The notes beneath the pieces are model-generated. The model was given only the letters and a program-made list of their open reading frames with translations, ran no database searches and was not told the DNA's origin. Position numbers and translations under genes: made by a program. A stretch of DNA of 64,000 nucleotides, taken from contig NC_086107.1 in assembly GCF_963921235.1 (NCBI RefSeq), positions 92,568,001-92,632,000 on the forward strand. Direction: 5' to 3'. Source of the DNA: Mobula hypostoma (Eukaryota). This document shows, piece after piece, positions 12,085-62,823 of the stretch; position 1 is the first letter of the stretch; each line of letters starts with the position of its first letter.

Positions 12085-12730
12085 CTGTACAATCTCTCCT
12101 TTCTCCCTTTGTGCATAGAATCTCACCCCCTTCCCCGTGTATGTACATTCTCTCCCCTTCCCTTTGTGTGTACAATCTCCCCCTCCCTTTGTGTGTACAA
12201 TCTCTCCTCTCTCCCCTTGTACGAACAATCTCTCCCCTCTCCCTTTATGTGTACAATCTCTCCTCTCTCCCCTTGTATGTACAATCTGCCCTTTCCCCTT
12301 GTGTGTACAATCTCTCCCCTCTCCCTTTGTGTGTACAATCTCTCCCTTTTGTGCACAATCTGCCCTTTCCCTTTGTGTGTACAATCTCCCCTCTCCCCTT
12401 GTGTGTACAATCTTCCCTGTCCCTGTGTGTACAATTTCCCCTCTCCCCTTGTGTGTACAATCTCTCCCCTCTCTCCTTCGTGTGCACAATCTCTCCCGAT
12501 GTGTGTACGATCTCTCCCCATGTGTACAATCTCTCACCTTGTGTGTACAATCTCTCCCCTTGTTTGTACAATCTCTCCTCTCTCCCGATGTGTGTACAAT
12601 CTCTCCCCTTGTGTGTATGCTCCCCATTCCCTTGTGCATACACTCACGCCCCTTTCTCCGTGTGCATACATTCTCTCCCATCACCCCTTGTGCCTACACA
12701 CTCCTCTCTCCCCTCTTGCGTACAGTCTCC
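12085..12730. repeat. Degenerate ~28-bp minisatellite (TGTGTGTACAATCTCTCCCCTCTCCCCT-like)
   Basis: Recurrent TGTACAATCT core separated by pyrimidine runs. Confidence 0.9.
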
Positions 12731-12734
12731 CCAC

Positions 12735-13228
12735 TATAAAGTTCTAATTCAACGTGAATGTTATTATCAGAGTACATATATGACACCGCGTACAACACTG
12801 AGATTGTTTTTTATGGCATACTCAGCAAATCTATGGAATAGTAACTAAAACAGGATCAATGAAAAAGCAAGAGCATAGAAGACAACAAACTGCAAGTACA
12901 AGTATAAATAAATAGCAATAAATAATGAATATGAAATAACAAGATAAAGAGTCCTTAAAGTGAGATCATTGGCGTGGGAACATCTCAATAGATTAGTGTA
13001 GTTACCCTCCTTTCTTCAAGAGCCTGATGGTAGAGGTGTAGCAACTGTTCTTGAACCTGGTGATGCGAGATTTGGGGCTCTTATATCTTCTACCTGATGG
13101 CAACAGCGAGAAAAGAGCACGGCTTGGGGCAATAGCTTTGCTGATGGTGGAAGCTGCTTCCCTCTGACAGTGCTTCAAGTAGATGTGCTGAATGGTTGGG
13201 AGGGCTTAACCCATAATGAACTGGATGT
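12735..13228 (-). mobile_element. LINE 3' fragment (Rex1-type) separating two satellite blocks
   Basis: caagagcctgatgg...ctgttcttgaacctgg...ctacctgatggca matches the reversed 3' ends of the other Rex1-type copies in this window. Confidence 0.65.
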
Positions 13229-13229
13229 T

Positions 13230-16200: not shown

Positions 16201-18745
16201 ACACTCCCCTCTCTCCCTGACTGTACACAGTCCCCTCCACTTGACTATACACACTCCCCTTTCTCCCTGAGTGTACACAGTACCCTCTCTCCTTGAGTGT
16301 ACAAACTCACCTCTCCCCTTAACTGTACACATTCCCCTCTCGCCTTGAGTGTACAAAATCCCCCCTCCCCTTGAGTGTACACACACCCCTCTCCCCTTGA
16401 GTGTACACACTCCCCTCTCTCCCTGACTGTACACAGTCCCCTCCACTTGACTATACACACTCCTTTTTCTCCCTGAATGTACACAGTACCCTCTCTCCTT
16501 GAGTGTACACACTCCCCTCTCCTCTTGAGTGTACACACTCCCCTCTCTGCATGAGTGTACACACTCCCTTCTCATTGAGCATACACACTCACCCCTCCCC
16601 TTAACTGTACACACTCCTCTCTCGCCTTGAGTGTACACACTCCCCCCTCCCCTTGAGTGTACACACACCCCTCTCCCCTTGAGTGTACACACTCCCCTCT
16701 CTCCCTGACTGTACACAGTCCCCTCTCCCTTTGAGTGTGCACATTCCCCACTCCCCTTCGTTGTACACAGTACCTTCTCCCTTGAGTGTACACAGTCCCT
16801 CTCTCCTTGAGTGTTCACATTTCCCTCTTCCCTTGACTGTACACACCCATTCTGTCCTTGAGTGTACACAGTCGCCCCTCCCCTTCAGTGTACACACTCC
16901 CCCTCCCCTTGAGGGTACACACTCTCCTCTCCCTTTGAGTGTACACACTCCCCTCTCCCATTGAGTGTACACACTCCCGTCTCCCTTGAATGTACACAGT
17001 CCCCCCTCCCTTTGATTGGTCACACTCCTCCCTCCCCTTGAGTGTACATACTCCCCTCTCTCCATGAGTGTTCACTGTCCCCTCAACCCCTTGACTGTAC
17101 ACACTCCCCTCTCCCTTTGAGTGTACACACTCCCCTCTCCCTTTGAGTGTACACACTCCACTCTCCCCTTGAGTGTACACACTCCCTGTACCCTTGAGTG
17201 TACACATTCCCCTCTCCCCTTGAGTGTACACACCCCCCCTTGAGTGTATATAGTCCCCTCGCCCCTTGATTGTTCACACTCCCTTCTCTCCTTGAGTGTA
17301 CACACTCCCCTCTCTCCTTGAGTGTGCACACTCCCCTTTCCCTTTGAGTGTACACACACCCCCCTCCCCTTGAGTGTACACAGTCCCATCTCTCCCTTGA
17401 GTGTACACACACCCCTCTCCCCTTGAGTGTACACGGTCCCCTCTCCCCCTGAGTGAACACACTCCTCTCTTCCCTTGAGTGTATATAGTCCCTTCGCCCC
17501 TTGATTGTTCACACTCCCTTCTCTCCTTGAGTGTACACACTCCCCTCTTCCCTTGACTGTACACACTTCCCTCTCTCCTTGAGTGTACACACTCCCCTCT
17601 CCCTTTGAGTGTACACTCGCCTCTCCCATTGAGTTTACACACTCCCCTCTCCCCATGAGTGTACACACTCCCCGCTCCTGTTGAGTGCACACAGTCCCCT
17701 CTCCCCTTGAGTATATACACTCCCCTTTCTCCTTGAGCATACACACTCCCCTCTCCCATTCAGTGTTCGCACTCGCCTCCCCCCTTGAATGCACACACTC
17801 CCTTGTCCCCTTGAGTGTACACACTACACCCTCCCATTTAGTGTAAACACTCAGCTCTCTCCTTGAGTGTTCACATTCCCCTCTTCCCTTGAGTGAACAC
17901 ACACGCCTCTCCCTTGAATGTACACAGTCCCTCCTCCCTTTGATTGTACACAGTCCTCTCTCCCCTTGAGTGTACACACTCCCCTCTCCTTGAGTGTACA
18001 CACTCCCCTCTCCCCTTGATAGGTCACACTGCCCCCTCTTCTTGAGTGTACATACTCCCCTCTCCCCATGAATGTACACGCTCCCCTTTCCCCTTGAGTG
18101 TACACATTACCCACTCCCCTTCAGTGTACACAGTACCCTCTCCCTTGTCTGTACACAGACCCCTTGCCCCTTGAATGTTCACACTCCCCACTTCCCTTGA
18201 CTGTACACAATCTGCTCTCCCTTTGAGTGTACATACTCCCCCTGCCTTTGAGTGTACACACTCCACTCTCCGCATGAATGTACACGGTCCCCTCTTCCAT
18301 TGACTGTACACAGTTCTCTCTCTCCTTGAGTGTACTCACACCCCTCTCCCCTTGAATGAACACATGTCCAACCCACTTGAGAGTGCACTGTCCACTTTCC
18401 CCTTGAGTGTAAACACTCCCCAACCCGTTGAGAGTACACACTCCACTCTCCCCTTGAGTGAACAGTCCTCCCTCTCTCTGTGAGTGTACTCACACACCTC
18501 TCCCCTTGAGTAAACACACACACAACCTGCTTGAGTGTACATACTCCCCTCTACCCTTGAGTGTACACACTTCCCCCTCCATTTAAGTGTACACACTCTC
18601 CTCTCCCTTGAGTGTACACTTCCCTCTCCATTTGAGTTTACACACTCCCCTCTCTCTTGAGTGTTCAGACTCCCCTCCCCAGAGTATACGCACTCCCCTC
18701 TCCCCTTCAGTGTATTCTTGCCTTGCTTGTACACTCTTCCCACTC
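13230..18745. repeat. ~27-bp satellite (CCCCTTGAGTGTACACACTCCCCTCTC), diverged units
   Basis: Continuous tandem array with core GAGTGTACACACTC. Confidence 0.95.
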
Positions 18746-21700
18746 ACCGTATGTGTACGCTCCCTCCTCTCTCTCCGTGTGTGTACACTCCCTCCTCTCT
18801 CTCCGTGTGCATACAATCCCTCCTCTCTCTCCGTGCGTGTACACTCCCTCAACTCTCTCCGTGTGTGTACACTCCCTCCTCTCCCTCCGTGTGTGTACAC
18901 TCCCCCCTCTCTCTCCGTGTGTGTACACTCCCTCCTCTCTCTCCGTGCGTGTACACTCCCTCCTCTCTCTCCGTGAGTGTACACTCCCTCCTCTCTCTCC
19001 ATGCGTGTACACACTCTCCTCTCTCTCCGTGTGTGTAAACTCCCTCCTCTCTCTCCGTGTGCATACACTCCCTCCTCTCTCTCCGTGCGTGCACACTCCC
19101 TCCACTCTCTCAGTGCGTGTACACACCCTCCTCCCTCTCCATGTGTGTACACTCCCTCCTCTCTCTCCGTGTGTGTACACTCCCTCCTCTCTCTCCGTGT
19201 GTGAACACACCCTCCTCTCTCTCCGTGTATGTACACTCTGTCCTCTCTCTCCGTGTGTATACACTGCCTCCTCTCTGTCCGTGTGTGTACACTACCTCCT
19301 CTCTCTCCATGTGTGTACACTCCGTCCTCTCTCTCCGTGTGTGAGTACACTCTCTCCTCTCTCTCCGTGTTTGTACACATCCTCCGCTCCCTCCATGTGT
19401 GTACACTCCCTCCTCTCTCTCCATGTGTGTACACTCCCTCCTCTCTCTCCATGTGTGTACACACCCTCCTCTTCCTCCGTGTGTGTACACACCCTCCTCT
19501 CGCTCCGTGTGTGTACACTCCCTCCTCTCTCTTCGTGTGTGTACCCTCCCTCCTCTCTCTCCGTGTGTGTACTCTCCCTCCTCTCTCTCCGTGTGTGTAC
19601 ACACCCTCCTCTTCCTCCGTGCGTGTACACTCCCTCCTCTCTCTCCGTGTGTGTACACACTCTCCTCTCTCTCCGTGTGTGTACACTCCCTCCTCTCTCT
19701 CCGTGCGTGCACACTCCCTCCACTCTCTCAGTGCGTGTACACAACCTCCTCCCTCTCCGTGTGTGTACACTCCCTCCTCTCTCCACGTACGTATGCTCCC
19801 TCCTCTTCCTCCGTGCGTGTACACTCCCTCCTCTCTCTCCGTGTGTGTACACTCCCTCCTCTCTCCCCGTGTGTGAACACACCCTCCTCTCTCTCCGTGT
19901 GTGAACACTCCCTCCTCTCTCTCCGTGTGTATACACTGCCTCCTCTCTGTCCGTGTGTGTACACTCCCTCCTCTCTCTCCATGCGTGTACACTCCCTCCT
20001 CTCTCTCCGTGTGTGTACACTCCTTCCTCTCTCTCCGTGTGTGTACACTCCGTCCTCTCTCTCCGTGTGTACACTCCCTCCTCTCTCTCCGTGCGTGTAC
20101 ACTGCCTCCTCTCTCTCCGTGTGTGTACACACCCTCCTCTCCCTCCATGTGTGTACACTCCCTCCTCTCTCTCCATGTGTGTACACTCCCTCCTCTCTCC
20201 ACGTACGTATGCTCCCTCCTCTTCCTCCGTGCGTGTACACTCCCTCCTCTCTCTCCGTGTGTGTACACTCCCTCCTCTCTCCCCGTGTGTGAACACTCCC
20301 TCCTCTCTCTCCGTGTGTGAACACTCCCTCCTCTCTCTCCGTGTGTATACACTGCCTCCTCTCTGTCCGTGTGTGTACACTCCCTCCTCTCTCTCCATGC
20401 GTGTACACTCCCTCCTCTCTCTCCGTGTGTGTACACTCCTTCCTCTCTCTCCGTGTGTTTACACTCCCTCCTCTCTCTCCGTGTGTGTACACTCCCTCCT
20501 CTCTCTCCGTGTGTGTACACCCCCTCCTCTCTCTCCGTGTGTGAACACTCCCTCCTCTCCCTCCGTGTGTGTACACTCCCTCCGCTCTCCCCATGTGTGT
20601 ACTCTCCCTCCGCTCCCTCCGTGCGTGTACACTCCCTCCTCTCTCTCCGTGTGTGTACACTCCCTCCTCTCTCTCCGTGTGTGTACACCCCCTCCTCTCT
20701 CTCCGTGTGTGAACACTCCCTCCTCTCCCTCCGTGTGTGTACACTCCCTCCGCTCTCCCCATGTGTGTACTCTCCCTCCGCTCCCTCCGTGCGTGTACAC
20801 TCCCTCCTCTCTCTCCGTGTGTGTACGCTCCCTCCTCTCCCTCCGTGTGTGTACACTCCCTCCTCTCTCTCTCTGTGTGTACGCTCCCTCTTCTCCCTCC
20901 GTGTGTGTACACTCCCTCCGCTCTCTCCGTGTGTGTACACTTCCTCCTCTCTCTCCGTGTGTGTACACTCCCTCCTCTCCCTCCATGTGTGTACATGCCC
21001 TCCACTCTCTCCGTGTGTTTACACACCCTCCTCTCCCTCCGTGTGTGTACACTCCCTCCTCTCTCTCCGTGTGTGTACTCTCCCTCCTCTCTCTCCGTGT
21101 GTGTACACACCCTCCTCTTCCTCCGTGTGTGTACACACCATCCTCTCTCTCCGTGTGTGTGTACACTCCCTCCTCTCCCTCCATGTGTGTACGCTCCGTC
21201 CACTCCCTCCGTGTGTGTACGCTCCCTCCTCTCTCTCCGTGTGTGTGTACACTCCCTCCTCTCTCTCCGTGCGTGTACACTCCCTCCTCTCTCTCCATGT
21301 GTGTACACGCCCTCCTCTCCCTCCTTGTGTGTACACTCCCTCCTCTCTCTCCGTGTGTGTACGCTCCCTCCACTCCCTCCGTGTGTGTACGCTCCCTCCA
21401 CTCCCTCCGTGCGTGTACACTCCGTCCCCTCTCTCCGTGCGTGTACACTCCCTCCTCTCACTCCATGTATGTACACTCCCTCCTCTGTGTGTGTGCGTAC
21501 ACTCCCTCCTCTCTCTCCGTGTTTGTACACACCCTCCGCTCCCTCCGTGTGTGTACACTCCCTCCTCTCTCTCCGTGTGTGTACTCTCCCTCCTCTCTCT
21601 CCGTGTGTGTACACTCCCTCCTCTCCCTCCGTGTGTGTACACTCCCTCCGCTCTCTCCGTGTGTGTACGCTCCCTCCTCTCCCTCCGTGTGTGTACACTC

Positions 21701-24700
21701 CCTCCGCTCTCTCCGTGTGTGTACGCTCCCTCCGCTCCCTCCGTGCGTGTACACTCCGTCCTCTCTCTCCGTGTGTGTACACTCCCTCCTCTCTCTCTCT
21801 GTGTACGCTCCCTCCTCTCCCTCCGTGTGTGTACGCTCCCTCCTCTCTCTCCGTGTGTGTACGCTCCCTCCTCTCTCTCCGTGTGTGTACACTCCCTCCT
21901 CTCTCTCCGTGTGTGTACGCTCCCTCCTCTCCCTCCGAGTGTGTACACTCCCTCCGCTCTCTCCATGTGTGTACTCTCCCTCCGCTCCCTCCGTGTGTGT
22001 ACACTCCCTCCGCTCTCTCCGCGTGTGTACACTCCCTCTTCTCCCTCCGTGTGTGTACACTCCCTCCTCTCCCTCCGTGTGTGTACACTCCCTCCGCTTT
22101 CTCCGTGTGTGTACGCTCCCTCCTCTCCCTCCGTGTGTGTACTCTCCCTCCTCTCTCTCCGTGTGTGTACACTCCCTCCTCTCCTTCCGTGTGTGTACAC
22201 TCCCTCCGCTCTCTCCGTGTGTGTACACTCCCTCCTCTCTGTGTGTGTACACTCCCTCCTCTCTCTCCGTGTGTGTACACTCCCTCCTCTCTCTCCGTGT
22301 GTGTACGCTCCCTCCTCTCTCTCTCTGTGTACGCTCCCACCTCTCTCTCCGTGTGTGTACGCTCCCTCCTCTCTCTCCGTGTGTGTACGCTCCCTCCTCT
22401 CTCTCCGTGTGTGTACACTCCCTCCTCTCTCTCTCTCTGTGTACGCTCCCTCCTCTCCCTCCGTGTGTGTACACTCCATCCGCTCTCTCCGTGTGTGTAC
22501 TCTCCCTCCGCTCCCTCCGTGTGTGTACACTCCCTCCGCTCTCTCCGTGTGTGTACACTGCCTCCTCTCCCTCCGTGTGTGTACACTCCCTCCGCTCTCT
22601 CCGTGTGTGTACACTCCCTCCTCTCCCTCCGTGTGTGTACACTCCCTCCGCTCTCTCCGTGTGTGTACGCTCCCTCCTCTCCCTCCGTGTGTGTACTCTC
22701 CTTCCTCTCTCTCCGTGTGTGTACACTCCCTCCGCTCTCTCCATGTGTGTACACTCCCTCCTCTCAGTGTGTGTACACTCCCTCCTCTCTCTCCGTGTGT
22801 GTAGGCTCCCTGCTCTCTCTCTCTCTGTACGCTCCCTCCTCTCTCTCCGTGTGTGTACGCTCCCTCCTCTCTCTCCGTGTGTGTACACTCCCTCCTCTCT
22901 CTCCGTGTGTGTACGCTCCCTCCTCTCCCTCCGTGTGTGTACACTCCCTCCGCTCTCTCCGTGTGTGTACTCTCCCTCCGCTCCCTCCGTGTGTGTACAC
23001 ACCCTCCTCTTCCTCCGTGTGTGTACACACCATCCTCTCTCTCCGTGTGTGTGTACACTCCCTCCTCTCCCTCCATGTGTGTACGCTCCGTCCACTCCCT
23101 CCGTGTGTGTACGCTCCCTCCTCTCTCTCCGTGTGTGTGTACACTCCCTCCTCTCTCTCCATGCGTGTACACTCCCTCCTCTCTCTCCATGTGTGTACAT
23201 GCCCTCCTCTCCCTCCTTGTGTGTACACTCCCTCCTCTCTCTCCGTGTGTGTACGCTCCCTCCACTCCCTCCGTGTGTGTACGCTCCCTCCACTCCCTCC
23301 GTGCGTGTACACTCCGTCCTCTCTCTCTGTGCGTGTACACTCCCTCCTCTCACTCCATGTATGTACACTCCCTCCTCTGTGTGTGTGCGTACACTCCCTC
23401 CTCTCTCTCCGTGTTTGTACACACCCTCCGCTCCCTCCGTGTGTGTACACTCCCTCCTCTCTCTCCGTGTGTGTACTCTCCCTCCTCTCTCTCCGTGTGT
23501 GTACACTCCCTCCTCTCCCTCCGTGTGTGTACACTCCCTCCGCTCTCTCCGTGTGTGTACGCTCCCTCCTCTCCCTCCGTGTGTGTACACTCCCTCCGCT
23601 CTCTCCGTGTGTGTACGCTCCCTCCGCTCCCTCCGTGCATGTACACTCCGTCCTCTCTCTCCGTGTGTGTACACTCCCTCCTCTCTCTCTCTGTGTACGC
23701 TCCCTCCTCTCCCTCCGTGTGTGTACGCTCCCTCCTCTCTCTCCGTGTGTGTACGCTCCCTCCTCTCTCTCCGTGTGTGTACACTCCCTCCTCTCTCTCC
23801 GTGTGTGTACGCTCCCTCCTCTCTCTCCGTGTGTGTACACTCCCTCCGCTCTCTCCGCGTGTGTACACTCCCTCTTCTCCCTCCGTGTGTGTACACTCCC
23901 TCCTCTGCCTCCGTGTGTGTACACTCCCTCCGCTTTCTCCGTGTGTGTACGCTCCCTCCTCTCCCTCCGTGTGTGTACTCTCCCTCCTCTCTCTCCGTGT
24001 GTGTACACTCCCTCCTCTCCTTCCGTGTGTGTACACTCCCTCCGCTCTCTCCGTGTGTGTACACTCCCTCCTCTCTGTGTGTGTACACTCCCTCCTCTCT
24101 CTCCGTGTGTGTACACTCCCTCCTCTCTCTCCGTGTGTGTACGCTCCCTCCTCTCTCTCTCTGTGTACGCTCCCACCTCTCTCTCCGTGTGTGTACGCTC
24201 CCTCCTCTCTCTCCGTGTGTGTACGCTCCCTCCTCTCTCTCCGTGTGTGTACACACCCTCCTCTCTCTCTCTCTGTGTACGCTCCCTCCTCTCCCTCCGT
24301 GTGTGTACACTCCCTCCGCTCTCTCCGTGTGTGTACTCTCCCTCCGCTCCCTCCGTGTGTGTACACTCCCTCCGCTCTCTCCGTGTGTGTACACTCCCTC
24401 CTCTCCCTCCGTGTGTGTACACTCCCTCCGCTCTCTCCGTGTGTGTACACTCCCTCCTCTCCCTCCGTGTGTGTACACTCCCTCCGCTCTCTCCGTGTGT
24501 GTACGCTCCCTCCTCTCCCTCCGTGTGTGTACTCTCCTTCCTCTCTCTCCGTGTGTGTACACTCCCTCCTCTCCTTCCGTGTGTGTACACTCCCTCCGCT
24601 CTCTCCATGTGTGTACACTCCCTCCTCTCTGTGTGTGTACACTCCCTCCTCTCTCTCCGTGTGTGTACGCTCCCTGCTCTCTCTCTCTCTGTACGCTCCC

Positions 24701-27700
24701 TCCTCTCTCTCCGTGTGTGCACGCTCCCTCCTCTCTCTCCGTGTGTGTACACTCCCTCCTCTCTCTCCGTGTGTGTACGCTCCCTCCTCTCCCTCCGTGT
24801 GTGTACACTCCCTCCGCTCTCTCCGTGTGTGTACTCTCCCTCCGCTCCCTCCGTGTGTGTACACTCCCTCCGCTCTCTCCGTGTGTGTGCACTCCCTCCT
24901 CTCCTTCTGTGTGTGTACACTCCCTCCGCTCTCTCCGTGTGTGTACACTCCCTCCTCTCTGTGTGTGTACACTCCCTCCTCTCTCTCCGTGTGTGTACGC
25001 TCCCTCCTCTCTCTCTCTGTGTACGCTCCCTCCTCTCTCTCCGTGCGTGTACGCTCCCTCCTCTCCCTCCGTGTGTGTACGCTCCCTCCTCTCTCTCCGT
25101 GTGTGTACGCTCCCTCCTCTCTCTCCGTGTGTGTACGCTCCCTCCTCTCCCTCCGTGTGTGTACACTCCCTCCGCTCTCTCCGTGTGTGTACTCTCCCTC
25201 CGCTCCCTCCGTGTGTGTACACTCCCTCCGCTCTCTCCGTGTGTGTACACTCCCTCCTCTCCCTCCGTGTGTGTACACTCCCTCCGCTCTCTCCGTGTGT
25301 GTACACTCCCTCCTCTCCCTCCGTGTGTGTACACTCCCTCCGCTCTCTCCGTGTGTGTACGCTCCCTCCTTTCCCTCCATGTGTGTACTCTCCCTCCTCT
25401 CTCTCCGTGTGTGTACACTCCCTCCTCTCCTTCCGTGTGTTTACACTCCCTCCGCTCTCTCCGTGTGTGTACACTCCCTCCTCTCTGTGTGTGTACACTC
25501 CCTCCTCTCTCTCCGTGTGTGTACGCTCCCTCCCCTCTCTCTCTGTGTACGCTCCCTCCTCTCTCTCCGTGTGTGTATGCTCCCTCCTCTCTCTCCGTGT
25601 GTGTACGCTCCCTCCTCTCTCTCCGTGTGTGTACACTCCCTCCTCTCTCTCCGTGTGTGTACGCTCCCTCCTCTCCCTCCGTGTGTGTACACTCCCTCCG
25701 CTCTCTCTGTGTGTGTACTCTCCCTCCGCTCCCTCCGTGTGTGTACACTCCCTCCGCTCTCTCCGTGTGTGTACGCTCCCTCCTCTCCCTCCGTGTGTGT
25801 ACTCTCCCTCCTCTCTCTCCGTGTGTGTAAACTCCCTCCTCTCCTTCCGTGTGTGTACACTCCCTCCGCTCTCTCCGTGTGTGTACACTCCCTCCTCTCT
25901 GTGTGTGTACACTCCCTCCTCTCTCTCCGTGTGTGTACGCTCCCTCCTCTCTCTCTCTGTGTACGCTCCCTCCTCTCTCTCCGTGTGTGTACGCTCCCTC
26001 CTCTCTCTCCGTGTGTGTACGCTCCCTCCTCTCTCTCCGTGTGTGTACACTCCCTCCTCTCTCTCCGTGTGTGTACGCTCCCTCCTCTCCCTCCGTGTGT
26101 GTACACTCCCTCCGCTCTCTCCGTGTTTGTACTCTCCCTCTGCTCTCTCCGTGTGTGTACACTCCCTCCTCTCCCTCCGTGTGTGTACACTCCCTCCGCT
26201 CTCTCCGTGTGTGTACGCTCCCTCCTCTCCCTCCGTGTGTGTACACTCCCTCCGCTCTCTCCGTGTGTGTACGCTCCCTCCTCTCCCTCCGTGTGTGTAC
26301 TCTCCCTCCGCTCCCTCCGTGTGTGTACACTCCCTCCGCTCTCTCCGTGTGTGTACGCTCCCTCCTCTCCCTCCGTGTGTGTACACTCCCTCCGCTCTCT
26401 CCGTGTGTGTACGCTCCCTCCTCTCCCTCCGTGTGTGTACACTCCCTCCGCTCTCTCCGTGTGTGTACGCTCCCTCCTCTCCCTCCGTGTGTGTACTCTC
26501 CCTCCTCTCTCTCCGTGTGTGTACACTCCCTCCTCTCCTTCCGTGTGTGTACACTCCCTCCGCTCTCTCCGTGTGTGTACACTCCCTCCTCTCTGTGTGT
26601 GTACACTCCCTCCCCTCTCTCCGTGTGTGTACGCTCCCTCCTCTCTCTCTCTGTGTACGCTCCCTCCTCTCTCTCCGTGCGTGTACGCTCCCTCCTCTCC
26701 CTCCGTGTGCGTACGCTCCCTCCTCTCTCTCCGTGTGTGTACGCTCCCTCCTCTCTCTCCGTGTGTGTACGCTCCCTCCTCTCCCTCCGTGTGTGTACAT
26801 CCCTCCGCTCTCTCCGTGTGTGTACTCTCCCTCCGCTCCCTCCGTGTGTGTACACTCCCTCCGCTCTCTCCGTGTGTGTACACTCCCTCCTCTCCCTCCG
26901 TGTGTGTACACTCCCTCCGCTCTCTCCGTGTGTGTACGCTCCCTCCTCTCCCTCCGTGTGTGTACACTCCCTCCGCTCTCTCCGTGTGTGTACGCTCCCT
27001 CCTCTCCCTCCGTGTGTGTACTCTCCCTCCTCTCTCTCCGTGTGTGTACACTCCCTCCTCTCCTTCCGTGTGTGTACACTCCCTCCGCTCTCTCCGTGTG
27101 TGTACACTCCCTCCTCTCTGTGTGTGTACACTCCCTCCTCTCTCTCTCTCTGTGTACGCTCCCTCCTCTCTCTCTCTGTGTACGCTCCCTCCTCTCTCTC
27201 CGTGTGTGTACGCTCCCTCCTCTCTCTCCGTGTGTGTACGCTCCCTCCTCTATCTCCGTGTGTGTACACTCCCTCCTCTCTCTCCGTGTGTGTACGCTCC
27301 CTCCTCTCCCTCCGTGTGTGTACACTCCCTCCGCTCTCTCCGTGTGTGTACTCTCCCTCCGCTCCCTCCGTGTGTGTACACTCCCTCCGCTCTCTCCGTG
27401 TGTGTACGCTCCCTCCTCTCCCTCCGTGTGTGTACGCTCCCTCCTCTCTCTCCGTGTGTGTACGCTCCCTCCTCTCCCTCCGTGTGTGTACGCTCCCTCC
27501 GCTCTCTCCGTGTGTGTACGCTCCCTCCTCTCTCTCCGTGTGTGTACGCTCCCTCCTCTCCCTCCGTGTGTGTACACTCCCTCCGCTCTCTCCGTGTGTG
27601 TACGCTCCCTCCGCTCCCTCCGTGTGTGTACACTGCCTCCGCTCTCTCCGTGTGTGTACACTCCCTCCTCTCCCTCCGTGTGTGTACACTGCCTCCGCTC

Positions 27701-28100
27701 TCTCCGTGTGTGTACACTCCCTCCTCTCCCTCCACGTGTGTACACTCCCTCCGCTCTCTCCGTGTGTGTACGCTCCCTCCTCTCCCTCCGTGTGTGTACT
27801 CTCCCTCCTCTCTCTCCGTGTGTGTACACTCCCTCCTCTCCTTCCGTGTGTGTACACTCCCTCCGCTCTCTCCGTGTGTGTACACTCCCTCCTCTCTGTG
27901 TGTGTACACTCCCTCCTCTCTCTCCGTGTGTGTACACTCCCTCCTCTCTCTCTCTGTGTACGCTCCCTCCTCTCTCTCCGTGTGTGTACGCTCCCTCCTC
28001 TCTCTCCGTGTGTGTGCCCTCTCTTCCCTCTCCCCCTCCCCCCTCTGCTTGTGTGTACACTCTCTTCCCCTCTCTTATTGTACATGCACACACGCTGCTC
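18746..28100. repeat. 28-bp satellite (CCGTGTGTGTACACTCCCTCCTCTCTCT), homogeneous units
   Basis: ~9.3-kb tandem array; variants TACGC/TACTC and CCGCTC; the consensus unit has no stop codon in any frame. Confidence 0.98.
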
Positions 28101-28599
28101 TCTCCTTGTGTGTAAACTCTCCCCTCTCCCTTTGCTCATTCTTCCCTCTCCCTTTACATGTACCCCTTCCCCTCTTTCTCTGTGCATACCCTCTCCCCCT
28201 CTCCTCTCATGCACACACTTGCCCCTCCCCTTGTATGAATATTCTCCCCTCTCCCCCTCTGTGTACCCTCCCCCCTCCCGTCTCCTTATATCTGTGCTTC
28301 CTTTCCCCCTCCCTCACCTCGATGCCTCCTCAATCGATTCCCTACCCTCTCACTGTAGCTGCTCTCCTTTGGTTTCGTTGAGCAAGTTCTGCGTGTTCTG
28401 TCACCGTCACCCTGGCCTTTGCACATTATCCCCACTCGTGGCCCTCCATTAAAATTCCAATTAAATTCGCACAACTCACTAAACCTGTGTAAAGTCTCTA
28501 TGAATTCATTACTCTCTGCACATCAACTCGATGAATATAAATGGAAACTTTCCTTTTCTTATTTTTCCATTTATAAGATCAATCAAGATATCTGCTGGT

Positions 28600-30024: not shown

Positions 30025-31665
30025 CAGTGCCTGTAAAAAGTATTTACACACTCTCCCCTTGGAAGTTTTCATGTTTTATTGTTTTACAACATTGAATCTC
30101 AGTGGATTCTATTTGGCTTTTTTGATACTGATGAACAGCAAAAGACTTTTGTGTCAAAGTGAAAACAGATCTCTATAAAGTGATCTAAATTAATTACAAA
30201 TATAAAACACAAAATAATTGGTTGCGTAAGTTTTCAAGATGACACACCAAATCATCACTGGTGCAACCAGTTGGCTTGGGAAGTCACTTAATTAATTCAG
30301 TGGAGATTTGTTTTTGGAGACCTGTGTGCAGTCAAGGTGTTTCAATTGACCGCAGTTAAGATACGCCTGTACCTGGAAGGTCCGACTGCGGGTGAGTCAG
30401 TATCCTGGCAATTACTACAACATGAAGACAAAAGGACACTCCAAGCAACTCCACAAAAAGGCTATTGAAAAGCACAAATCAGGAGATGGGTGCAAGAAAA
30501 TTTCCGAGTCACTGAATATCCCTTGGAGTACAGTTAAGTCAATCATCAAGAAATGGAAAGAGTATGGCACAGCTGTAAATTTGCCTACAGCAGGCCATCC
30601 TCGATAACTGACAGAGCATGCAAGAAGGGGACTAGTGAGGGAGATCACTAAGTGACCTATGATAACTCTGGAGGAGTTACAGGCTTCAGTGGCTGAGATG
30701 GGAGAGACTGTGCAAACAACAACTGTTGCCCGGTTGCTTCACCAGTCACAGCTTTATGGGAGAGAGGCAAAGAGAAAGCCACTGTTGAAAGAACCTTACA
30801 TGAAATCTCAGCTGGAGGTTGCCAGAAGCATGTGAGAGACTCTGAAGACAGCTGGAAGAAGGTTCTATAATCTGATGAAATCAAAATTGAGCTTTTTAAC
30901 CATCAGACTAAACACTATGTTTGGCATAAGCTGTACACTGCACATAATCAAAAACACCCCATCCCCTGCCGTGAAACATGGTGGTGGCTGCATCATGCTG
31001 TGGGGATGCTTCACTGCAGCAGGCCCTAGAAGGCTTATGAAGGTAGAGGGTAAAATGAATGCAGCAAAATACAGGGAAACCCTGGAGGAAAACCTGATGG
31101 AGTATGCAAGAGAATTGCAACTTGGGAGATAATTTGTTCTCCAGCAAGACAATAACCCAAAGCATAAAGACAAAGCTATGAAGGAATGGCTTAAAAACAA
31201 CGAAGTTAATGTCCTGGAGTGGTCAAGTCAGAGCCCAGAACTCAATCCAATTGAGAATTTGTGGCTGGACTTGGAAAAGTGGTGTTCACTCTTGATCCGC
31301 ATGCAATCTGACAGAGCGTGAGCGGTTTTGTAACGTAGAATGGGGAAAAAATTGCAGTGTCCAGATGTGCAAAGCTGATAGAGACCTATCCACACAGACT
31401 CAAGGCTGTAATTGCTGCCAAAGTTGCATCTACTAAATACTGACTTGAAGTGGGTAACAATCAATTATTTTGTGTTTTATATTTATAATTAGATTAGAAT
31501 CACTTTGTTGAGATCTGTTTTCATCTGTTTTCACTTTGACATGAAAGACTTTTTTTTCTGTTGATCAGCATCAAAAAAGCCAAATTAAATCCACTGTGAT
31601 TCAATGTTGTAAAACAATAAAACATGAAAACTTCCTGGGTGGGGAAATACTTTTTATGGGCACTG
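30025..31665 (+). mobile_element. Full-length Tc1-family DNA transposon with ~200-bp TIRs
   Basis: TA|CAGTGCCTGTAAAAAGTATT...AATACTTTTTATGGGCACTG|TA; inner TIR GGAAGTTTTCATGTTTTATTGTTTTACAACATTGAATC mirrored at ~31598-31635. Confidence 0.95.
30422..31443 (+). pseudogene. Tc1 DDE transposase, disrupted
   Basis: MKTKGHSKQL...KKISESLNIPWSTVKSIIKKWKEYG HTH region, [38 protein letters not shown], ends TKY*; several stops and frameshifts. Confidence 0.9.
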
Positions 31666-35041: not shown

Positions 35042-35077
35042 AGTCCTGACGAAGGGTCTCGGCCTGAAACGTCGACT
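35042..35077 (+). ncRNA. Minimal type I hammerhead ribozyme (Penelope-type), intact core
   Basis: AGTC-CTGACGA-AGG gtctcgg CCT-GAAA-C-GTC-GACT: stem I AGTC/GACT, conserved CUGANGA and GAAA, GUC triplet, loopless palindromic stem III (ACGT). Confidence 0.75.
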
Positions 35078-35444
35078 GCACCTCTTCCTACAGATGCTGC
35101 TTGGCCTGCTGCGTTCACCAGCAACTCTGATGTATGTTGCCAGCAGAAGTGGTAGATTGCAACATTTATGAGAAGTTTGAATAAATACATGGATGGAGGC
35201 CTGTGATCCAGGTGCAGGCCAATGGGACGAGGCAGAATAACAGTTCGGCATGGACTAGGTAGGCCAAAGGGTTTCTGTGCTGTTGTACTCAATGTCTCTG
35301 AAATGTGTGTGGACTGGATGATATCCTCGTGTCGAGAGAACTCGAGGAAGTCTACTCTTCCCAGTGTGATCAGACTAATAATTATCCCTTTCCAACATCA
35401 GAGAGGGTGCAGAAAATCACCAGGAATTTACTAGAATGGAGGAT

Positions 35445-36366
35445 TTGAATTGTAAGTTGGGACATTATGTTACAACTGTACAAGATGCTGGTGAGGCCAT
35501 ACTTGCTGTGTAGTTCTGGTCATCCAGCGATAGGAAGCATGCCATTAGACTCAAAAGGTTGCAGAGAAGATTCACGAGGATGTTACCAGGACTGGTGTGC
35601 CTGAGTTATAAGGAGAGGTTTAGACCGTTTCCCCCAGACTGTAGGACGCTGATCGTGTATAAAACTGGGGGCGCACAGTGCATAGTTCCCTGAAGGTGGA
35701 ATCTCATGTGGATAGGGTGGTGAAGAAAGCTTTTGATATGCTGGCCTTTATAAATCAGAGCACTGAGTATAGGATGTAATGTTGAAATTGTACAAGGCAT
35801 TGGTAAGGCCAAATTTGGAGTATTGTGTACAGTTCTGGTCACCGAATTATAGGAAAGATGTCAACAAAATTGAGAGAGCACAGAGAAGATTTTCTAGAAT
35901 GTTACCTGGGTTTCATCTCCTAAATTACAGAGAAAGGTTGAACAAGTTGGGTCTTTATTCTTTGGAGCGTAGAAGGTTGAGGGGTGACTTGATAGAGGTG
36001 TTTAAAATTATAAGGGGGATAGATAGAGTTGACGTGGATAGGCTTTTTCCATTGAGAGTGGGGGAGATTCAAACAAGAGGACATGAGTTGAGAATTAAAG
36101 GGCAAAAGTTTAGGGGTAACATGAGGGGGAACTTCTTTACTCAGAGAGTGGTAGCTGTGTGGAACGAGCTTCCAGCAGAAGTGGTTAAGGCAGGTTCGAT
36201 GTTGTCATTTAAAGTTAAATCGGACAGCTATATGGACAGGAAAGTAATGGAGGGTTATAGGCTGAGTGCAGGTCGGTGGGACTAGGTGAGAGTAAGAGTT
36301 TGGCACGGAATAGAAGGGCTGAGATGGCCTGTTTCTGTGCTGTAATTGTTATATGGTTATATGGTT
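35445..36366 (+). mobile_element. Two tandem CR1 LINE 3' fragments
   Basis: ORF 35779-36285 MLKLYKALVRPNLEYCVQFWSP...LERRRLRGDLIEVFKI...FFTQRVVAVWNELP; (GTTATATG)n tail. Confidence 0.9.
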
Positions 36367-43463: not shown

Positions 43464-44027
43464 TTGTTAAGTTGACTAAACTTCAGAGAGAATCGGGCTT
43501 GGGTTTAATATCAGATTTAGCTGGAAGTATTGAAATTGGTAAATTGATTTATTACTGTCTCATGTACTGAGGGACAGTGAGCACTTTGTTTGTGGGCCAT
43601 CTATACCAATCATTTAACTGCAGCAGTGCATCAGTTGAAAACCTTGTCTTACATACCATTTATACAGGTCAATACCTTACAACACTGCATTGAGGTAGAA
43701 CAAGGGGAAACAAAAGAATGCAGAATGAAGTGTAACAGCTACAAAGAGAGTGCAGAGCAGGAAAAGAATAAAGTGTAGAGTACAGTGCAGGTAGACAATA
43801 AGCCACAAGGTTATAAGGATGAAGGATCAACTTTATTTGCCCTGTACATTTACATGTATTACAAATTCGCTATAGTGTGTTGGCACAACATGCCACAAAA
43901 ACATTCAACAATTATAAAGAAAAAATAATTATATCAAAATATGAAACATATAAGATTATTAAGAGCAACACACATCAAAGTTGCTGGTGAACGCAGCAGG
44001 CCAAGCAGCATCTCTAGGAAGAGGTGC

Positions 44028-44063
44028 AGTCGACGTTTCAGGCCGAGACCCTTCGTCAGGACT
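44028..44063 (-). ncRNA. Minimal type I hammerhead ribozyme, intact core
   Basis: Reverse complement AGTCCTGACGAAGGGTCTCGGCCTGAAACGTCGACT. Confidence 0.75.
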
Positions 44064-44670
44064 AACTGAAGGAAGAGTGAGTAAGGGATTTGAAAGTTGG
44101 AGGGGGAGGGGGAGATCCAAAATGATAGGAGAAGACAGGAGGGGGAGGGATGGAGCCAAGAGCTGGACAGGTGATAGGCAAAAGGGGATACGAGAGGATC
44201 ATGGGACAGGAGGTCCGGGAAGAAAGACAAGCCGGGGGGGACCCAGAGGATGGGCAAGAGGTATATTCAGAGGGACAGAGGGAGAAAAAGGAGAGTGAGA
44301 GAAAGAATGTGTGCATAAAAATAAGTAACAGATGGGGCACGAGGGGGAGGTGGGGCCTTCTCTAACTTGCGCTAATGCCCCACCTCCCCCTCGAACCCCA
44401 TCTGTTACTTATTTTTATGCACACATTCTTTCTCTCACTCTCCTTTTTCTCCCTCTGTCCCTCTGAATATACCTCTTGCCCATCCTCTGGGTACCCCCCC
44501 CGCTTGTCTTTCTTCCCGGACTTCCTGTCCCATGATCCTCTCGTATCCCCTTTTGCCAATCACCTGTCCAGCTCTTGGCTCCATCCCTCCCCCTCCTGTC
44601 TTCTCCTATCATTTTGGATCTCCCCCTCCCCCTCCAACTTTCAAATCCCTTACTCACTCTTCCTTCAGTT

Positions 44671-44706
44671 AGTCCTGACGAAGGGTCTCGGCCTGAAACG
44701 TCGACT
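44671..44706 (+). ncRNA. Minimal type I hammerhead ribozyme, intact core
   Basis: AGTCCTGACGAAGGGTCTCGGCCTGAAACGTCGACT, identical to the copies at 35042 and 44028. Confidence 0.75.
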
Positions 44707-44803
44707 GTACCTCTTCCTACAGATGCTGCTTGGCCTGCTGCGTTCACCAGCAACTTTGATGTGTGTTGCTTGAATTTCCAGCATCTGCAGAATTCCTGTT
44801 GTT

Positions 44804-45176
44804 TAAGATTATTAAGGGGTTGGACATGCTAGAGGCGGGAAACATGTTCCCGATGTTGGGGGAGTCCAGAACCAGAAGCCACAATTTGAGAATAAGGGGT
44901 AGGCCATTTAGAACGGAGTTGAGGAAAAACTTTTTCACCCAGACAGTTGTGGATCTGTGGAATGCTCTGCCTCAGAAGGCAGTGGAGGCCAATTCTCTGG
45001 ATGCTTTCAAGAAAGAGTTAGATAGAGCTTTTAAGGATAGCGGAGTGAAGGGAGATGGGGAGAAGGCGGGAACGGGGTACTGATTGTGGATGATCAGCCA
45101 TGATCACAGTGAATGGCGGTGCTGGCTTGAAGGGCCGAATGGTCTACTCCTGCACCTATTGTCTATTGTCTATTGT
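44804..45176 (+). mobile_element. CR1 LINE 3' end (host of the palindrome)
   Basis: KIIKGLDMLEAGNMFP...RKNFFTQTVVDLWNALP; (TATTGTC)n tail. Confidence 0.9.
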
Positions 45177-48642: not shown

Positions 48643-49055
48643 TGTTCAACCTTTAACTATAAATTAAATTCAGGCAACACACTTGTAAATTTTCTCTGCA
48701 TTCTTTCAGTTTTGTGATATCTTTCCTGAATGAAAACAAAGACTTTCTGTGCCCCCCCCCGCCCCCAATCAGGCACGTAGTTGGTCAGCTGGAGGTTAGA
48801 GCGAGGGAGAACAATGCAGGAGTCTGTGACCTACCTCAATATGTATTCCAGGATGAAATCACTCAGCAGTGCGCCTGCTCCTTGATTTTGCTGAGCTCCT
48901 ATACAGCCAGCAGCTACTGTGTGTGGGGAGGGAGCGAATACTACTCTGGTAGAAGGTGCCTCAGAGGGAGGGAGACAGAGTTGGAAGCCTTGTGGCAGGT
49001 GGCAGCGGGAGCCAGAAGGATCTCATTTAAAGAAAAGCTGGTCTACAAGATCCAT

Positions 49056-49190
49056 AAAAACATGAGATTCTGCAGCTGCTGGAAATCCAGAGCGACACAC
49101 GCACAAAATACTGGAGGAACTCAGCAGGCCAGGCAGCATCCTTGGAGAGGAACGAACAGTCGATGTTTCAGCCCCGAAATGTAGACTGTC
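49056..49190 (-). mobile_element. Penelope-like pLTR fragment with a truncated hammerhead
   Basis: ctggaggaactcagcaggccaggcagcatc...cagtcgatgtttcagccccgaaatgtagactg. Confidence 0.7.
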
Positions 49191-49702
49191 GTAAGACTCA
49201 CCTTCAAGAGTGTTGACATTTATAGTGGAACGTCAATGTATACAGACAGATCCAAGATGTCTGTTAAAACATCACAGCTGTAAGTCGTCCAGATATTGGT
49301 GATCTGAGTTTGGCGAGTCCAGGGCCAAAGTCTAGAGGTCGGGCACACAGAAGATGGCGTGTCCTGAGGTCAAGGCATCCCGTCCCGTTTTTTCCTTGCT
49401 GTTGTTGTGGTGTTTGTCTTGTATTTTGGCTGCATGTTGTTCTGCTGAACATTGTGGGCGTGCTATGTTGGTACCGGAAGCGTGACGACCCTTGTGGGCT
49501 GCCCCCAGCACGTCCTCGAACTGTGCTGGTCGTTGACGCTGTGATGCATTTCACCGTATGCTTTGACGTACATGTGATAAATAAATCTAATTTTGCTGCA
49601 GGGTTGCAAACATACCAATACTTACGGGAGGTCCCAGGTGACCACCTGGAGTGGATCAATATTTAGGAGAGTGATATTAAGTCAGTATTCATGGAGCTAC
49701 GA

Positions 49703-50460
49703 GAGATTTTGCAGATACTGGGAATCCGGAATGCCACACACAGAATGCTGGAGGAACTCAGCAGGTCAGGCAGCATCTTGGAGGGAAATATACAGTCAAC
49801 GTTTCAGGCTGAGACCTTTCATCAAGGACTGGAAAGGAAGGGGGAAAATGCCAGAATAAAAGACACAAAAGATTCTGCGGATGCTGGAAATCCGGAGCAA
49901 CACACGCACAAAATGCTGGAGGAACTCAGCAGGTCAGGCAGCATCTATGGAGAGGCATTAACATTGTTTTGGGCTGAGACCTTTCATCAGGACTGGTAAG
50001 GAAGGGAGCAGAAGTCAAAATAGGGTAAAGGATGGTAAAGACTGCAAGCTGGCAGGTGATAGGTGAGACCAGGTGAAGGGGAAGGCGTGTGGAAAGGATG
50101 TGAGAAACTGGGAGGTGATAGGAGGAAGAGGAAGAAGGCTGAATAAGATGGAATCTGATTGGAGAGGACCGTGGAATGAAGGGAAGAAAGAGGGGAACAA
50201 GAGGGAAGGTGAAGGGCTGGTGAGGAGAAAGGTGTGTGGGTGGAGGAGAGGGATGAAGGATGAAGCTGGAAGGTGATAGGTGGAAGAGGTAAAGGACCAA
50301 AGAAGGAATCTGATTGGAGAGGAAATTGGATTATAGAATAAAGGGAAGGAGGTGGGGAACCAGAAGAGGGAAGGTGCAGTGATGGGCAGATTATGAGGAT
50401 AAAGGATGGGGAAGAAAATGGGGTAATAAGGCCAGAGGGATAACGGAAGACCAAGAGGCA
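49703..50460 (-). mobile_element. Tandem Penelope-like pLTRs plus a purine-rich 3'UTR
   Basis: Two direct copies (~49703-49860 and ~49862-50000) of gatgctgg...ggaggaactcagcaggtcaggcagcatc...gagacctttcatcaggactgg. Confidence 0.75.
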
Positions 50461-51170: not shown

Positions 51171-51949
51171 TGTTGCACCGATGTGCCTGTAGCCCCAGTG
51201 AACATGGATACTTGGATACCTGGATCTGCTTGTAGCACGACGTTGAGGTTGCCTCCGTGCATACTGACTCCCTCCAGCGATCACTCCTGTAAATACTGAT
51301 CCACTCCTGGCCACCGCACCCCAACCCCCCACCGACAAGACTGACTTAATACTCCCCCCACCAACAATACTGACTTAACGGCGTGATTCCACGCTAAGTA
51401 TCACCAAGTCCAGACCACTGTAAAATTGATTCCCACCTGGACAGATACATGGTTAGGAAAGGTTTAGGGAGATATAGACCAAATGCAGGCAGATGGGGAC
51501 TTACTCAAGTTGGCTAGTACTTGGCATGAATGTTAGGCTGAAGGGCCTGTCTCCATGCTGAATAATTCTAGAAACGTGACTCCATTCTAAAGCTGCAATA
51601 AGGGTCTCGGCCCAAATTGTCAACTGTTTATTCCCCTCCATAGATGCTGCCTGACCTGTTGCATTCCTCCAGTATTTTGTGTGTGTTACTTAGAAAACAT
51701 TGTCACATCTACACTCCTGCAGCCAGTACTGACATAGAGCTGTGGCCCCCTGTAAGCTTTGACTAACATCTGGGATCTGTCTGTAAACACTGACCATCTG
51801 TTATTGCATTGTATACACTGACTAATATCTGGCGCTCAATAATTTCACCTTTTGGGGCCCACTGTGAGTACTGGCATGCATACACTCCCAGATTTGTCTA
51901 AATATTGATGTATATCTGGAACCCATCTCAAAATCTTGGAATGCATCCG

Positions 51950-52450
51950 GGAGCCATCTGCAAACACAGGCACACATCTGGGAGCCACCTGTAAATACAT
52001 TCACACATCTGGGAGTTACCTGTAAATACAATCACACATCTGGTGCCACCTGTAAATACAATCACACATCTGGGTGTCACCTGTAAATACAATCACACAG
52101 CTGGTATCACCTGTAAATACAATCACACATCTGGGAACCACCTGTAAACACAATCACACATCTGGGTGTCGCCTGTAAATACAATCACACATCTGGGAGC
52201 CACCTGTAAATACAATCACACATCTGGTGTCACCTGTAAATACAATCACACATCTGGGAGCCACCTGTAAATACAATCACACATCTGGGTGTCACCTGTA
52301 AATACAATCACACATCTGGGTGTCACCTGTAAATCCAATCACACAGCTGGTATCACCTGTAAATCCAATCACACATCTGGTGTCACCTGTAAATACAATC
52401 ACACATCTGGGTGTTACCTGTAAATACAATCACACATCTGGGAGACACCT
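51950..52450. repeat. 30-31-bp minisatellite (CACCTGTAAATACAATCACACATCTGGGTGT), about 15 units
   Basis: Directly visible tandem units. Confidence 0.95.
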
Positions 52451-53065
52451 CTGAACACTTGCCCATGTAGGAGCCATGTAAGATAACACGCCTGGGAGCC
52501 ATTGGCAAGTATAGACACAGTTGGGAATCCCCCTCCTTCCCCTTCCTCCCCCTCCCTCCCTCTCCCTCCGTCTCCTCCTCCCCAATTCTATCCCTCTCTC
52601 CCCTTTCCCTGTCCTCTCTCCCCCTGTCTCCCCCTCCCCATTCTCCCTCTCTCTCCCCAACTCTCTCCTCTTCTTTCCCCTCTATCCCCTCCCCGCCCAC
52701 TTCCTCTCCCTGCTCCCCACCCTCACATCGAGGTTCAGCAACCTGGGACACCAGGAGGGACCTCAGTTTACAACTGCTTGCTAAGTGATTTTCTCCGCAG
52801 TGCTGGACTCCCTCGGAACTGTACTAGAGGCATCCACCCAGTGATACGTGTCAGCTCGTCCGAGAGTTCTACAGCACTGGGCAGGTCCTTCAGTCCAACT
52901 CATGCATGCCAGGTCAGCCTACCTGACCTGAACTCATTTGGTCCATATCCACTTTTCCTAACCACGCCAGATTCAGATTTATTATTACAGGACTTCGAAA
53001 CATACAGACATCCAAACAACCAATTTACCTCTATTTCTTCACCTATATCCTTGAGTAATTCAATC

Positions 53066-53276
53066 ACACACAAGAGAAAATCTGTAGATGCTGGAAACCC
53101 AAGCAACACACACAAAGTGCTGCAGGAACTCAGCAGGCCAGGCAGCATCTATGGGAAAAAGTACAGTCGACGTTTCAGGCTGAGACCTGCTGAAAGTCCT
53201 CGGCACGAAACATCAACTGTACTTTTTTCCATAGATGCTGCCTGGCCTGCTGAGCTCCTCCAGCACTTTGTGTGTG
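53066..53276. mobile_element. Fold-back element made of two inverted Penelope-like pLTR halves
   Basis: 53107-53180 is the reverse complement of ~53203-53276. Confidence 0.8.
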
Positions 53277-57700: not shown

Positions 57701-57916
57701 TGCCCTATCTGTCTATGCAGCCATCTTTAAGCACTCTTAGTTCTTGTGTACATCAAGGACCACTGTTAGTGGCCAAACATTCACTGTTTACATCTTGTCT
57801 TTATTTGACCTTTGAAAATGCATCATTTGGCACTTACCATGATTAAATTTCATCTTCTAATGTTTTGCCAAGATTAAGATTGCAAATTGGGGGGGGGGGG
57901 GAATGAATCAAAATCA

Positions 57917-58530
57917 TAAACACAAGAGGTTCTGCAGTTTTCTGGAAATCCAGAGCAACACAATAAATTGCTGGAGGAACTCAGCAGGTCATGCGGCATC
58001 TGCGGAGGGGAGTGAAGAGCTGGTGTTCCAAGCAGAAGCCGGGATAAGAAGGTGCTGGGAGTGCAAGCTGGCAGATGATAGGTGAGGCCAGGGGAGAGGG
58101 AAGGTGGGTGGATGGTGGATGGGGATGGAGTGAGAAGCTGGGAGGTGATAGGTCGAAGGGCTGAAGAGGAAGGAATCTGATAGGAGAGGAGAGTGGACCA
58201 TGGGAGAAAGGGAAGAAGGAGGGTCTCCACAGGGAGGTGATGGGCAGGTGCCTGTAAAAAAAAATCTCAGAATCTCATACATACTTCAATAATGTTCGCA
58301 TTGATCTTTCCTTTGAAATTTGAGAAGGGGTAAGATGGGAGCCAGAATGTGGAATAGGAAAAGAGAGAGTGGGGAGGAAGAAGAAATTCCCAGAAGCTAG
58401 AGAAATCGATGCTTATGCCATCAGGCTGGAGGCTACCCAAACGGATATGAGGTATTGTTCTGCCAACTCGAGGATGGCCTCATTGTGGCAGTAGAGAAGG
58501 CCACGGCCAACATGTCAGAATGGGAGTGCA
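57917..58530 (-). mobile_element. Penelope-like element 3' end (ORF C-terminus, 3'UTR, pLTR)
   Basis: The reverse strand, across two frameshifts, gives HSHSDM / GLLYCHNEAILELAEQYLI / RLGSLQPDGISIDFSSF, typical of the GIY-YIG-domain C-terminus of vertebrate Penelope-like ORFs; pLTR at ~57917-58005. Confidence 0.75.
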
Positions 58531-59039
58531 GAGGAGATTAAAATAGTGTCACAAATTTACGGAAGGAAGCAGATCCTCTGGCTACTGTGGCTCATTACAG
58601 CAATCCCCACATTCCCACCGCGTCTCCCAACTCCCCCCTCCTGTTTTGCCACTCACCCTGTGGCCAATTAACCCACCAAACCTCTACTGCTGGAATGGGA
58701 TTGGGAAGTAGAATTAAAATGGATGGTCGTTGGGATCCTCAGGCTCGGAAATGAATGCTTGGGAATGGCTGAGCTGTGCTAGAATCCCTGCTAACCTGCA
58801 CAGACAAAGAGTTAACGTGAAGTGAGCGACTTTGTTATTTTAAAACTGGAATGGGGTATATTTTCTTTTTATTTAGAGATACAGGTTGGTGCAGGCATAG
58901 GTTAATTTGTCACTCCTGCTTTCTTCATATTTGCCCTTACGTGCTGGGTGTTTCCCTGGCTACTCTAGTTGCCTCCCATATCCCAAAGAATAGTAACGGT
59001 TAGTGAATCGTGGGCACGCTATGTTGGCAAGTCAGTGCA

Positions 59040-62669: not shown

Positions 62670-62823
62670 ATGTCGGGCGATGGGGAGGAAGAGCTGTGCC
62701 GCAACGCGCTGGCGCTGGTCAATGAACTCTGCTTCAGCATCCGGGGCAATCACAACAATGAGAAGTGCATCGAGTTCTCCTACCTCCTCCGGGACCGGGA
62801 CCGCACACGCCACATCGAGACAG
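62670..62823 (+). CDS. First coding exon of an unidentified host protein-coding gene (51 aa, then a phase-1 intron)
   Basis: GCCGAGATG start with in-frame TGA at 62655-62657; strongly G/C-ending codons; donor ACAG|GTAATG; candidate acceptors ttgttccag (62149) and cttgttag (62568, with a CTGAC branch-like site upstream); no transposon motifs. Confidence 0.85.

Follow-up and report, generated by a model that had tools for sequence, protein, structure and literature searches.

Minimal hammerhead motifs in a young ray repeat family with the anatomy of Penelope-like retroelement ends

A 36-nt sequence with the appearance of a minimal hammerhead ribozyme recurs in the 64-kb stretch of Mobula hypostoma DNA analysed here (contig NC_086107.1; hereafter the window). 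The copy at 44671-44706 raises the question of which kind of element carries it, whether its RNA could cut itself, and whether it acts on the neighbouring gene. We consider it very probable that the copies are pseudo-LTR (pLTR) end pieces of a high-copy ray Penelope-like element (PLE), that the motif is cut as a tandem dimer in the parent element, and that the copies in the window are neutral and inert. The assignment to a PLE rests on the class of the motif and on the anatomy of the insertions, and not on a protein match.

Copies of the motif and the insertions that carry them

The identical 36-mer was found at 35042-35077(+), 44028-44063(-) and 44671-44706(+), which bears out the three intact copies claimed in the original prediction; none would be expected by chance. 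With the 25-nt core pattern and up to three mismatches, four matches were obtained in the window against 0.00 expected (100 shuffles). A hammerhead structure descriptor detected only the three intact sites, compared with a mean of 0.01 per shuffled window (100 shuffles). Chance origin of the 36-mer copies is excluded. That the three are independent had to be rejected, because 44028 and 44671 are the arms of one inverted insertion; hence, the three identical copies represent two insertions. The inverted insertion has the following parts:

43951-43963 (+): left copy of a perfect, AT-rich target-site duplication of 13 bp, with the right copy at 44804-44816
43964-44804 (no single strand): one inverted (head-to-head), 5'-truncated insertion of PLE type, with arms of about 398 bp and its centre near 44367
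44028-44063 (-): intact motif of the left arm
44358-44670 (+): putative last ORF codons and stop (44358-44375), then a pyrimidine-rich 3' UTR
44671-44706 (+): intact minimal type I hammerhead motif, identified by sequence, descriptor, published consensus and fold energy
44769-44804 (+): tail of about 36 nt, on the right arm only

The arms are identical in 388 of 398 columns, and in public contigs, loose ends occur at 44768 as well as at 44804, 36 nt apart. Inverted arms, a one-sided tail and the 13-bp duplication are PLE hallmarks, and inverted, 5'-truncated copies with a 30-40-bp tail at one end have been described for these elements (PMC8557442). In the window, 5' truncation with an inverted copy is seen at both 43964-44804 and 53062-53276, and a tail of 30-40 bp at a single end is present at 44769-44804. 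A partial tandem, or direct pLTR, is represented by a decayed pair 164 nt apart at 49.8-50.0 kb and by a contig joint that leads from 44781 back to 44671. The segment 44358-44670 may correspond to the end of the element's ORF and its 3' UTR, as a weak alignment to the ORF end of a remnant at 58 kb suggests.

Two further observations concern this insertion. Transcription of 43964-44804 from either strand would give a near-perfect hairpin of about 400 bp, a structure on which A-to-I editing or small-RNA processing is likely to act. In addition, 44707-44804 differs from older copies by two opposite one-base indels, so that the segment is equally long in young and old subfamilies; a reading frame or an RNA structure may lie behind these paired indels.

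The other family members of the window are listed below, with mismatches counted against the 36-mer:

3823-3960 (+): decayed copy beginning at stem I, 6 mismatches
7482-7640 (-): decayed copy beginning at stem I, motif at 7587(-) with 5 mismatches, preceded (by eye) by a short stretch of its own downstream sequence in inverted orientation
35042-35140 (+): young solo copy, 96/99 identical, with its 5' truncation at the edge of stem I
49053-49190 (-): decayed copy with the 3' half of the motif only
49695-50330 (-): two decayed head-to-tail copies of an older subfamily, 164 nt apart, with motifs at 49794(-) (8 mismatches) and 49959(-) (11 mismatches)
51590-51691 (+): decayed copy, core destroyed, 12 mismatches
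53062-53276 (no single strand): decayed fold-back pair with its centre inside the motif, 53183(+) with 10 and 53165(-) with 9 mismatches
57912-58600 (-): old family remnant from which the motif has been lost

The solo copy at 35042 was inserted in another repeat and has a perfect 15-nt flanking duplication (35030 and 35136). All seven decayed copies (7/7) are damaged in the core or the stems. This includes the pair at 49.8-50.0 kb, the only dimer-type layout in the window, in which both cores are damaged. Decayed copies had also been foreseen, and seven lie where they were placed, with 5-12 mismatches, whereas the one near 49160 amounts to only the 3' half of the motif.

Our results indicate that the family is both young and abundant. 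At least half of the sampled words were contained in 18 of the 23 listed public runs, four of which (X1, X13, X19 and X21) were compared with the family piece. Run X1, a possible source of the window's DNA, yielded 141,450 contig pieces, 20,129 of them at least 99% alike, while X13 yielded 8,138 and X19 yielded 8, bearing in mind that summed contig depth does not equal copy number. The raw-read run X21 yielded 0, which does not amount to a test. Together with the likeness of the arms, the 96/99 identity of the solo copy and the perfect 13- and 15-nt duplications, the near-identical X1 pieces substantiate the recent mobility proposed earlier. No loci matching the family patterns were found in viral contigs (0) or in metagenome contigs (0).

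At the edge of stem I, the depth of run X1 climbs 4-5 fold, and loose ends directly ahead of 44671-44673 occur in 1,117 X1 contigs, with a pyrimidine-rich consensus that resembles the UTR of older subfamilies. The UTR comparison was counted for the 49994 copy only, the upstream of the 49830 copy being mostly its tandem partner; here, the UTR aligns at 52%, equal to the shuffled baseline, compared with 69% for the motif and 75% for the 98 nt downstream. The block common to the subfamilies thus starts exactly at stem I.

A link to a PLE protein was sought in the remnant at 58 kb. Upstream of this old copy, at 58.3-58.8 kb(-), lie frameshifted pieces that we take to resemble the C-terminal end of the PLE GIY-YIG domain. 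The likeness was not borne out by the searches: Pfam, run on 21 chosen frames, returned nothing for this piece, homolog searches for a PLE protein link gave one and five candidates with none at E<=10, and an Atlas search gave weak unnamed matches (best score 0.87). A phmmer match (P0005) was discarded as an artefact, being a tandem-repeat protein with a best tblastn E of 0.11 to the window.

Fold and conservation of the motif

The claim that the 36-mer is a minimal type I hammerhead motif of the PLE class is supported, as its core, palindrome, triplet and stem I fit the published consensus. In the copy at 44671, the elements are as follows:

44671-44674/44703-44706 (+): stem I, AGUC/GACU
44675-44681 (+): core CUGACGA, followed by the unpaired A44682
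44683-44686/44691-44694 (+): stem II, GGGU/GCCU, 4 bp, with a CUCG loop
44695-44698 (+): GAAA, then the palindromic CG, with the predicted cut after C44702

The complete register reads AGUC / CUGACGA / A / GGGU-CUCG-GCCU / GAAA / C-G / U-C / GACU. Stem I is a short helix that closes the type I fold (pair probabilities 0.65-0.89), and the four pairs of stem II in the GGGU/GCCU register have probabilities of 0.86-0.95. This register has an energy of -6.0 kcal/mol, compared with -4.6 for the 3-bp AGG/CCU stem proposed originally, which we reject on account of its worse energy and its departure from the published consensus. In turn, energy, pair probabilities and the published consensus all favour an unpaired A44682. 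Because stem II has the GGGU/GCCU register, the alternation of CCT and CCC among copies, formerly read as stem II variants that both pair, is a one-sided change between G.U and G-C at 44694, with no compensation, and is rejected as covariation. The three young copies have G.U at 10.1-11.1 (T at 44694) versus the canonical G-C, and the share of the canonical C11.1 in contig depth is 41% for run X1 and 38% for X13. The core CUGANGA and GAAA are present in all three young copies. The ACGU palindrome is followed by C17; positions 15.2 and 16.2 are palindromic, helix III is minimal or absent, and the triplet is of the NUH type.

The metazoan PLE consensus comprises a flank rich in U, helix I, CUGANGA, a single unpaired base, a helix II that begins with G and ends in C, GAAAN, a palindrome and NUH (PMC4209133), written as CUGANGAH / G..C / GAAAN-palindrome-NUH (Cervera and de la Pena 2014, PMC4209133). 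The ray motif resembles this class in its type I topology, in CUGANGA with an unpaired H, in the G at 10.1, in the 4-bp helix I and in its U-rich 5' flank, and its GAAA-C-G-U-C without loop 3 is exactly that of the fugu, lamprey, Xenopus and tick entries (PMC4209133). Helix II has 4 bp in the ray versus about 6 in the consensus. The G10.1-C11.1 pair is highly conserved but not invariant in that paper, where G.U also occurs in cichlid, Xenopus, coelacanth and limpet entries (PMC4209133). The small PLE-associated hammerheads of Lunse, Weinberg and Breaker, which cleave as dimers, have a very short palindromic stem III (PMC6765202); the ray motif is like them in this respect, the comparison being with their description only.

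As an isolated molecule, the 36-mer has a lowest-energy fold in which the core GACG pairs with CGUC, an inactive form (-10.0 kcal/mol), and it is no more stable than shuffled sequences (z -0.37). Only a second copy offers the ACGU a pairing partner (-1.7 kcal/mol), and stem III cannot close in the monomer. Unconstrained cofolding of two monomers produced an extended duplex and not the active dimer, which is uninformative. The Rfam check suggested earlier gave no hammerhead: there were 0 matches at gathering thresholds in the whole window and, at E<=10, 47 matches in 43800-45000, none to a hammerhead family. The microRNA-family matches among these 47 only reflect the long hairpin.

The original prediction also expected a core more conserved than its flanks. 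Among the window copies, identity is 69-84% in the motif versus 70-75% in the 3' flank, that is, the motif is not better kept than the roughly 100 nt downstream. Stem covariation beyond shuffles was likewise not found in eight window sequences, where 484 of 500 shuffles pair at least as well; this absence is expected, because seven of the eight are decaying. Among the 40 of 82 variants listed, 32 fall in the 313 nt upstream, 2 in the 36 nt of the motif and 6 in the 100 nt downstream, a distribution too weak for calling the core more conserved. The only motif variants among these 40 are U11.1>C and C17>U, both of tolerated types.

Possible roles of the motif in element and host

We propose that the end piece is a pseudo-LTR consisting of 3' UTR, hammerhead motif, about 100 nt and an optional tail. 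In the active parent element, two tandem motifs would most likely form stem III through the self-complementary ACGU, and tandem transcripts would be cut after GUC, probably with the assistance of protein, judging from published relatives. The window copies derive from reverse transcription of RNA uncut at the motif site, with 5' truncation and fold-back inversion. The template was uncut at this site because the genomic copies span it intact. After insertion, the copies would undergo neutral decay.

Published relatives offer parallels for these steps. A Schistosoma monomer of the minimal class shows no cleavage in vitro, and dimers show low cleavage (PMC4209133). In the anole, the PLE hammerhead cleaves with protein present, but unprocessed RNA is the main substrate and cleavage is unnecessary for insertion in vitro; the tail lies between two internal reverse transcriptase (RT) start sites, and targets are AT-rich (PMC11167929). 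The ray copies resemble this element, Poseidon PAc of Anolis carolinensis (Frangieh et al. 2024, PMC11167929), in a hammerhead near the pLTR end, a 30-40-nt tail apparently set by two RT starts, AT-rich targets with ATT, and insertion from uncut RNA. Unlike Poseidon PAc, they have no ORF.

Insertion of the anole PLE from uncut RNA would also suit a motif that is hammerhead-derived but catalytically silent, being part of a cis block of about 135 nt for protein binding and RT start, and a stall or fold-back point in cDNA synthesis. Conservation that covers the motif and its downstream sequence alike, the misfolding of the monomer, and the opposite-strand joints at 44672 and 44686 in contigs point in the same direction. 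By eye, the 5' end or the centre of inversion falls inside the 36 nt in 6 of the 10 window insertions, and in none of them at the cut site, yet this sample is small and biased towards short copies, both by truncation bias and by the way in which they were found. Moreover, the young family retains every core base and the palindrome, its two listed motif variants are tolerated, and the anole motif does cleave with protein (PMC11167929). Altogether, we regard a silent motif as unlikely.

It seems to us quite improbable that the hammerhead fold mainly serves to stall and fold back the PLE reverse transcriptase, thereby setting truncation and inversion sites, while inverted inserts lock their own ribozyme in dsRNA and are harmless in introns. 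If true, this reading would connect two unexplained features of PLEs, their hammerhead and their inversions, and it is testable on tens of thousands of junctions from one genome.

The copies could, in principle, belong to a non-LTR retrozyme, which is non-autonomous, has type I hammerheads in a tandem array and makes circular RNA. Non-LTR retrozymes derive from PLE pLTRs and have been found in one chondrichthyan genome; like the ray copies, they are PLE-derived, non-coding and endowed with a type I hammerhead (bioRxiv 10.64898/2026.07.22.740005). The decayed 164-nt tandem and the joint from 44781 to 44671 would fit such an array. However, retrozymes consist of head-to-tail units each with an intact motif (bioRxiv 10.64898/2026.07.22.740005), whereas the intact ray copies are solo or inverted. 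Two or more consecutive head-to-tail units with complete motifs were not found in the window, where the sole tandem pair has damaged cores, and the putative ORF end and one-sided tail are as in PLE truncations. Mostly dispersed single copies, with opposite-strand pairs 100-700 bp apart, have already been reported for the minimal class (PMC4209133), and the ray family is alike. A retrozyme origin is therefore very unlikely in our judgement, and pLTR end pieces of a PLE remain the preferred explanation.

As for the host, the nearest gene is synaptotagmin-C, and the hammerhead copies lie 18-28 kb upstream of its first coding exon:

62670-62823 (+): first coding exon of synaptotagmin-C, with 98% identity to the proteins of Mobula birostris and Hypanus sabinus

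Located 51 kb upstream of the ATG exon are a CpG island (about 9.5-12 kb) and a donor-like site (11210/11211), which could represent the promoter and a non-coding first exon of this gene. With the gene on the + strand, they could mark the beginning of a first intron of 51 kb, in which both sense copies would lie and might then cut the synaptotagmin-C pre-mRNA or have been co-opted to regulate it. We find this highly improbable. The transcription start is only putative, and a distance of 9,629 nt separates the two sense copies. Even for intronic copies on the strand of synaptotagmin-C, transcription reaches the antisense arm first, and the 44671 copy pairs fully with it; judged by minimum energies of the whole insertion, forcing the hammerhead carries a penalty of 74.6 kcal/mol in a hairpin of -843 kcal/mol (841 nt). 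The 35042 copy folds otherwise in its context, and the related Schistosoma monomer did not cleave in vitro (PMC4209133). The insertions are, moreover, young, so that no deep conservation is expected. Action of the copies on host RNA thus appears unlikely from these models; they are probably inert in the neighbouring gene, because one is zipped with its antisense arm and the other is a lone monomer. In the whale shark, many PLE pieces are reported to lie within introns.

Finally, a chance hammerhead look-alike in the tail of an ordinary SINE or LINE would accord with the lack of an Rfam match, of a fold z-score and of covariation, but it is barely credible given the descriptor's false-match rate of 0.01 per shuffled window and the features outside the descriptor that also fit the class (the unpaired A, the G at 10.1, the U-rich 5' flank and the PLE-type anatomy).

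Place in the literature and further features of the window

Minimal hammerheads have been known in PLEs since 2014 (PMC4209133), and the ray family is an ordinary addition to this class. Cartilaginous fish are absent from the alignment of that paper examined here, and sharks, skates and Callorhinchus go unmentioned in the part of its supplement that was searched. A sequence-level account of PLE hammerheads from cartilaginous fish was not found in the literature searched, though a 2026 preprint counts retrozymes in one chondrichthyan (bioRxiv 10.64898/2026.07.22.740005) and the abundance of PLEs in the whale shark has been published. A young and abundant family with two common 11.1 alleles is useful material for studying the function of PLE hammerheads, through truncation and inversion profiles or allele-specific cleavage assays.

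The window contains several other repeats. A strand-skewed, minisatellite-like array of about 16 kb occupies 12043-28315, with GC up to 0.6 and AT skew to -0.72; on both strands it has frames that run for up to 2,736 codons without a stop, and it looks non-coding. A broken Tc1/mariner transposase is found at 30350-31320(+), and its first frame matches the Sleeping Beauty HTH family (E 1.9e-16). LINE remnants are located at 2389-3650(+), with an RVT_1 match (E 9.3e-15), and at 35773-36282(+). Many further repeat fragments recur across the window, and 51944-52458 is a tandem array whose units, about 61 nt long, are about 89% identical to one another.
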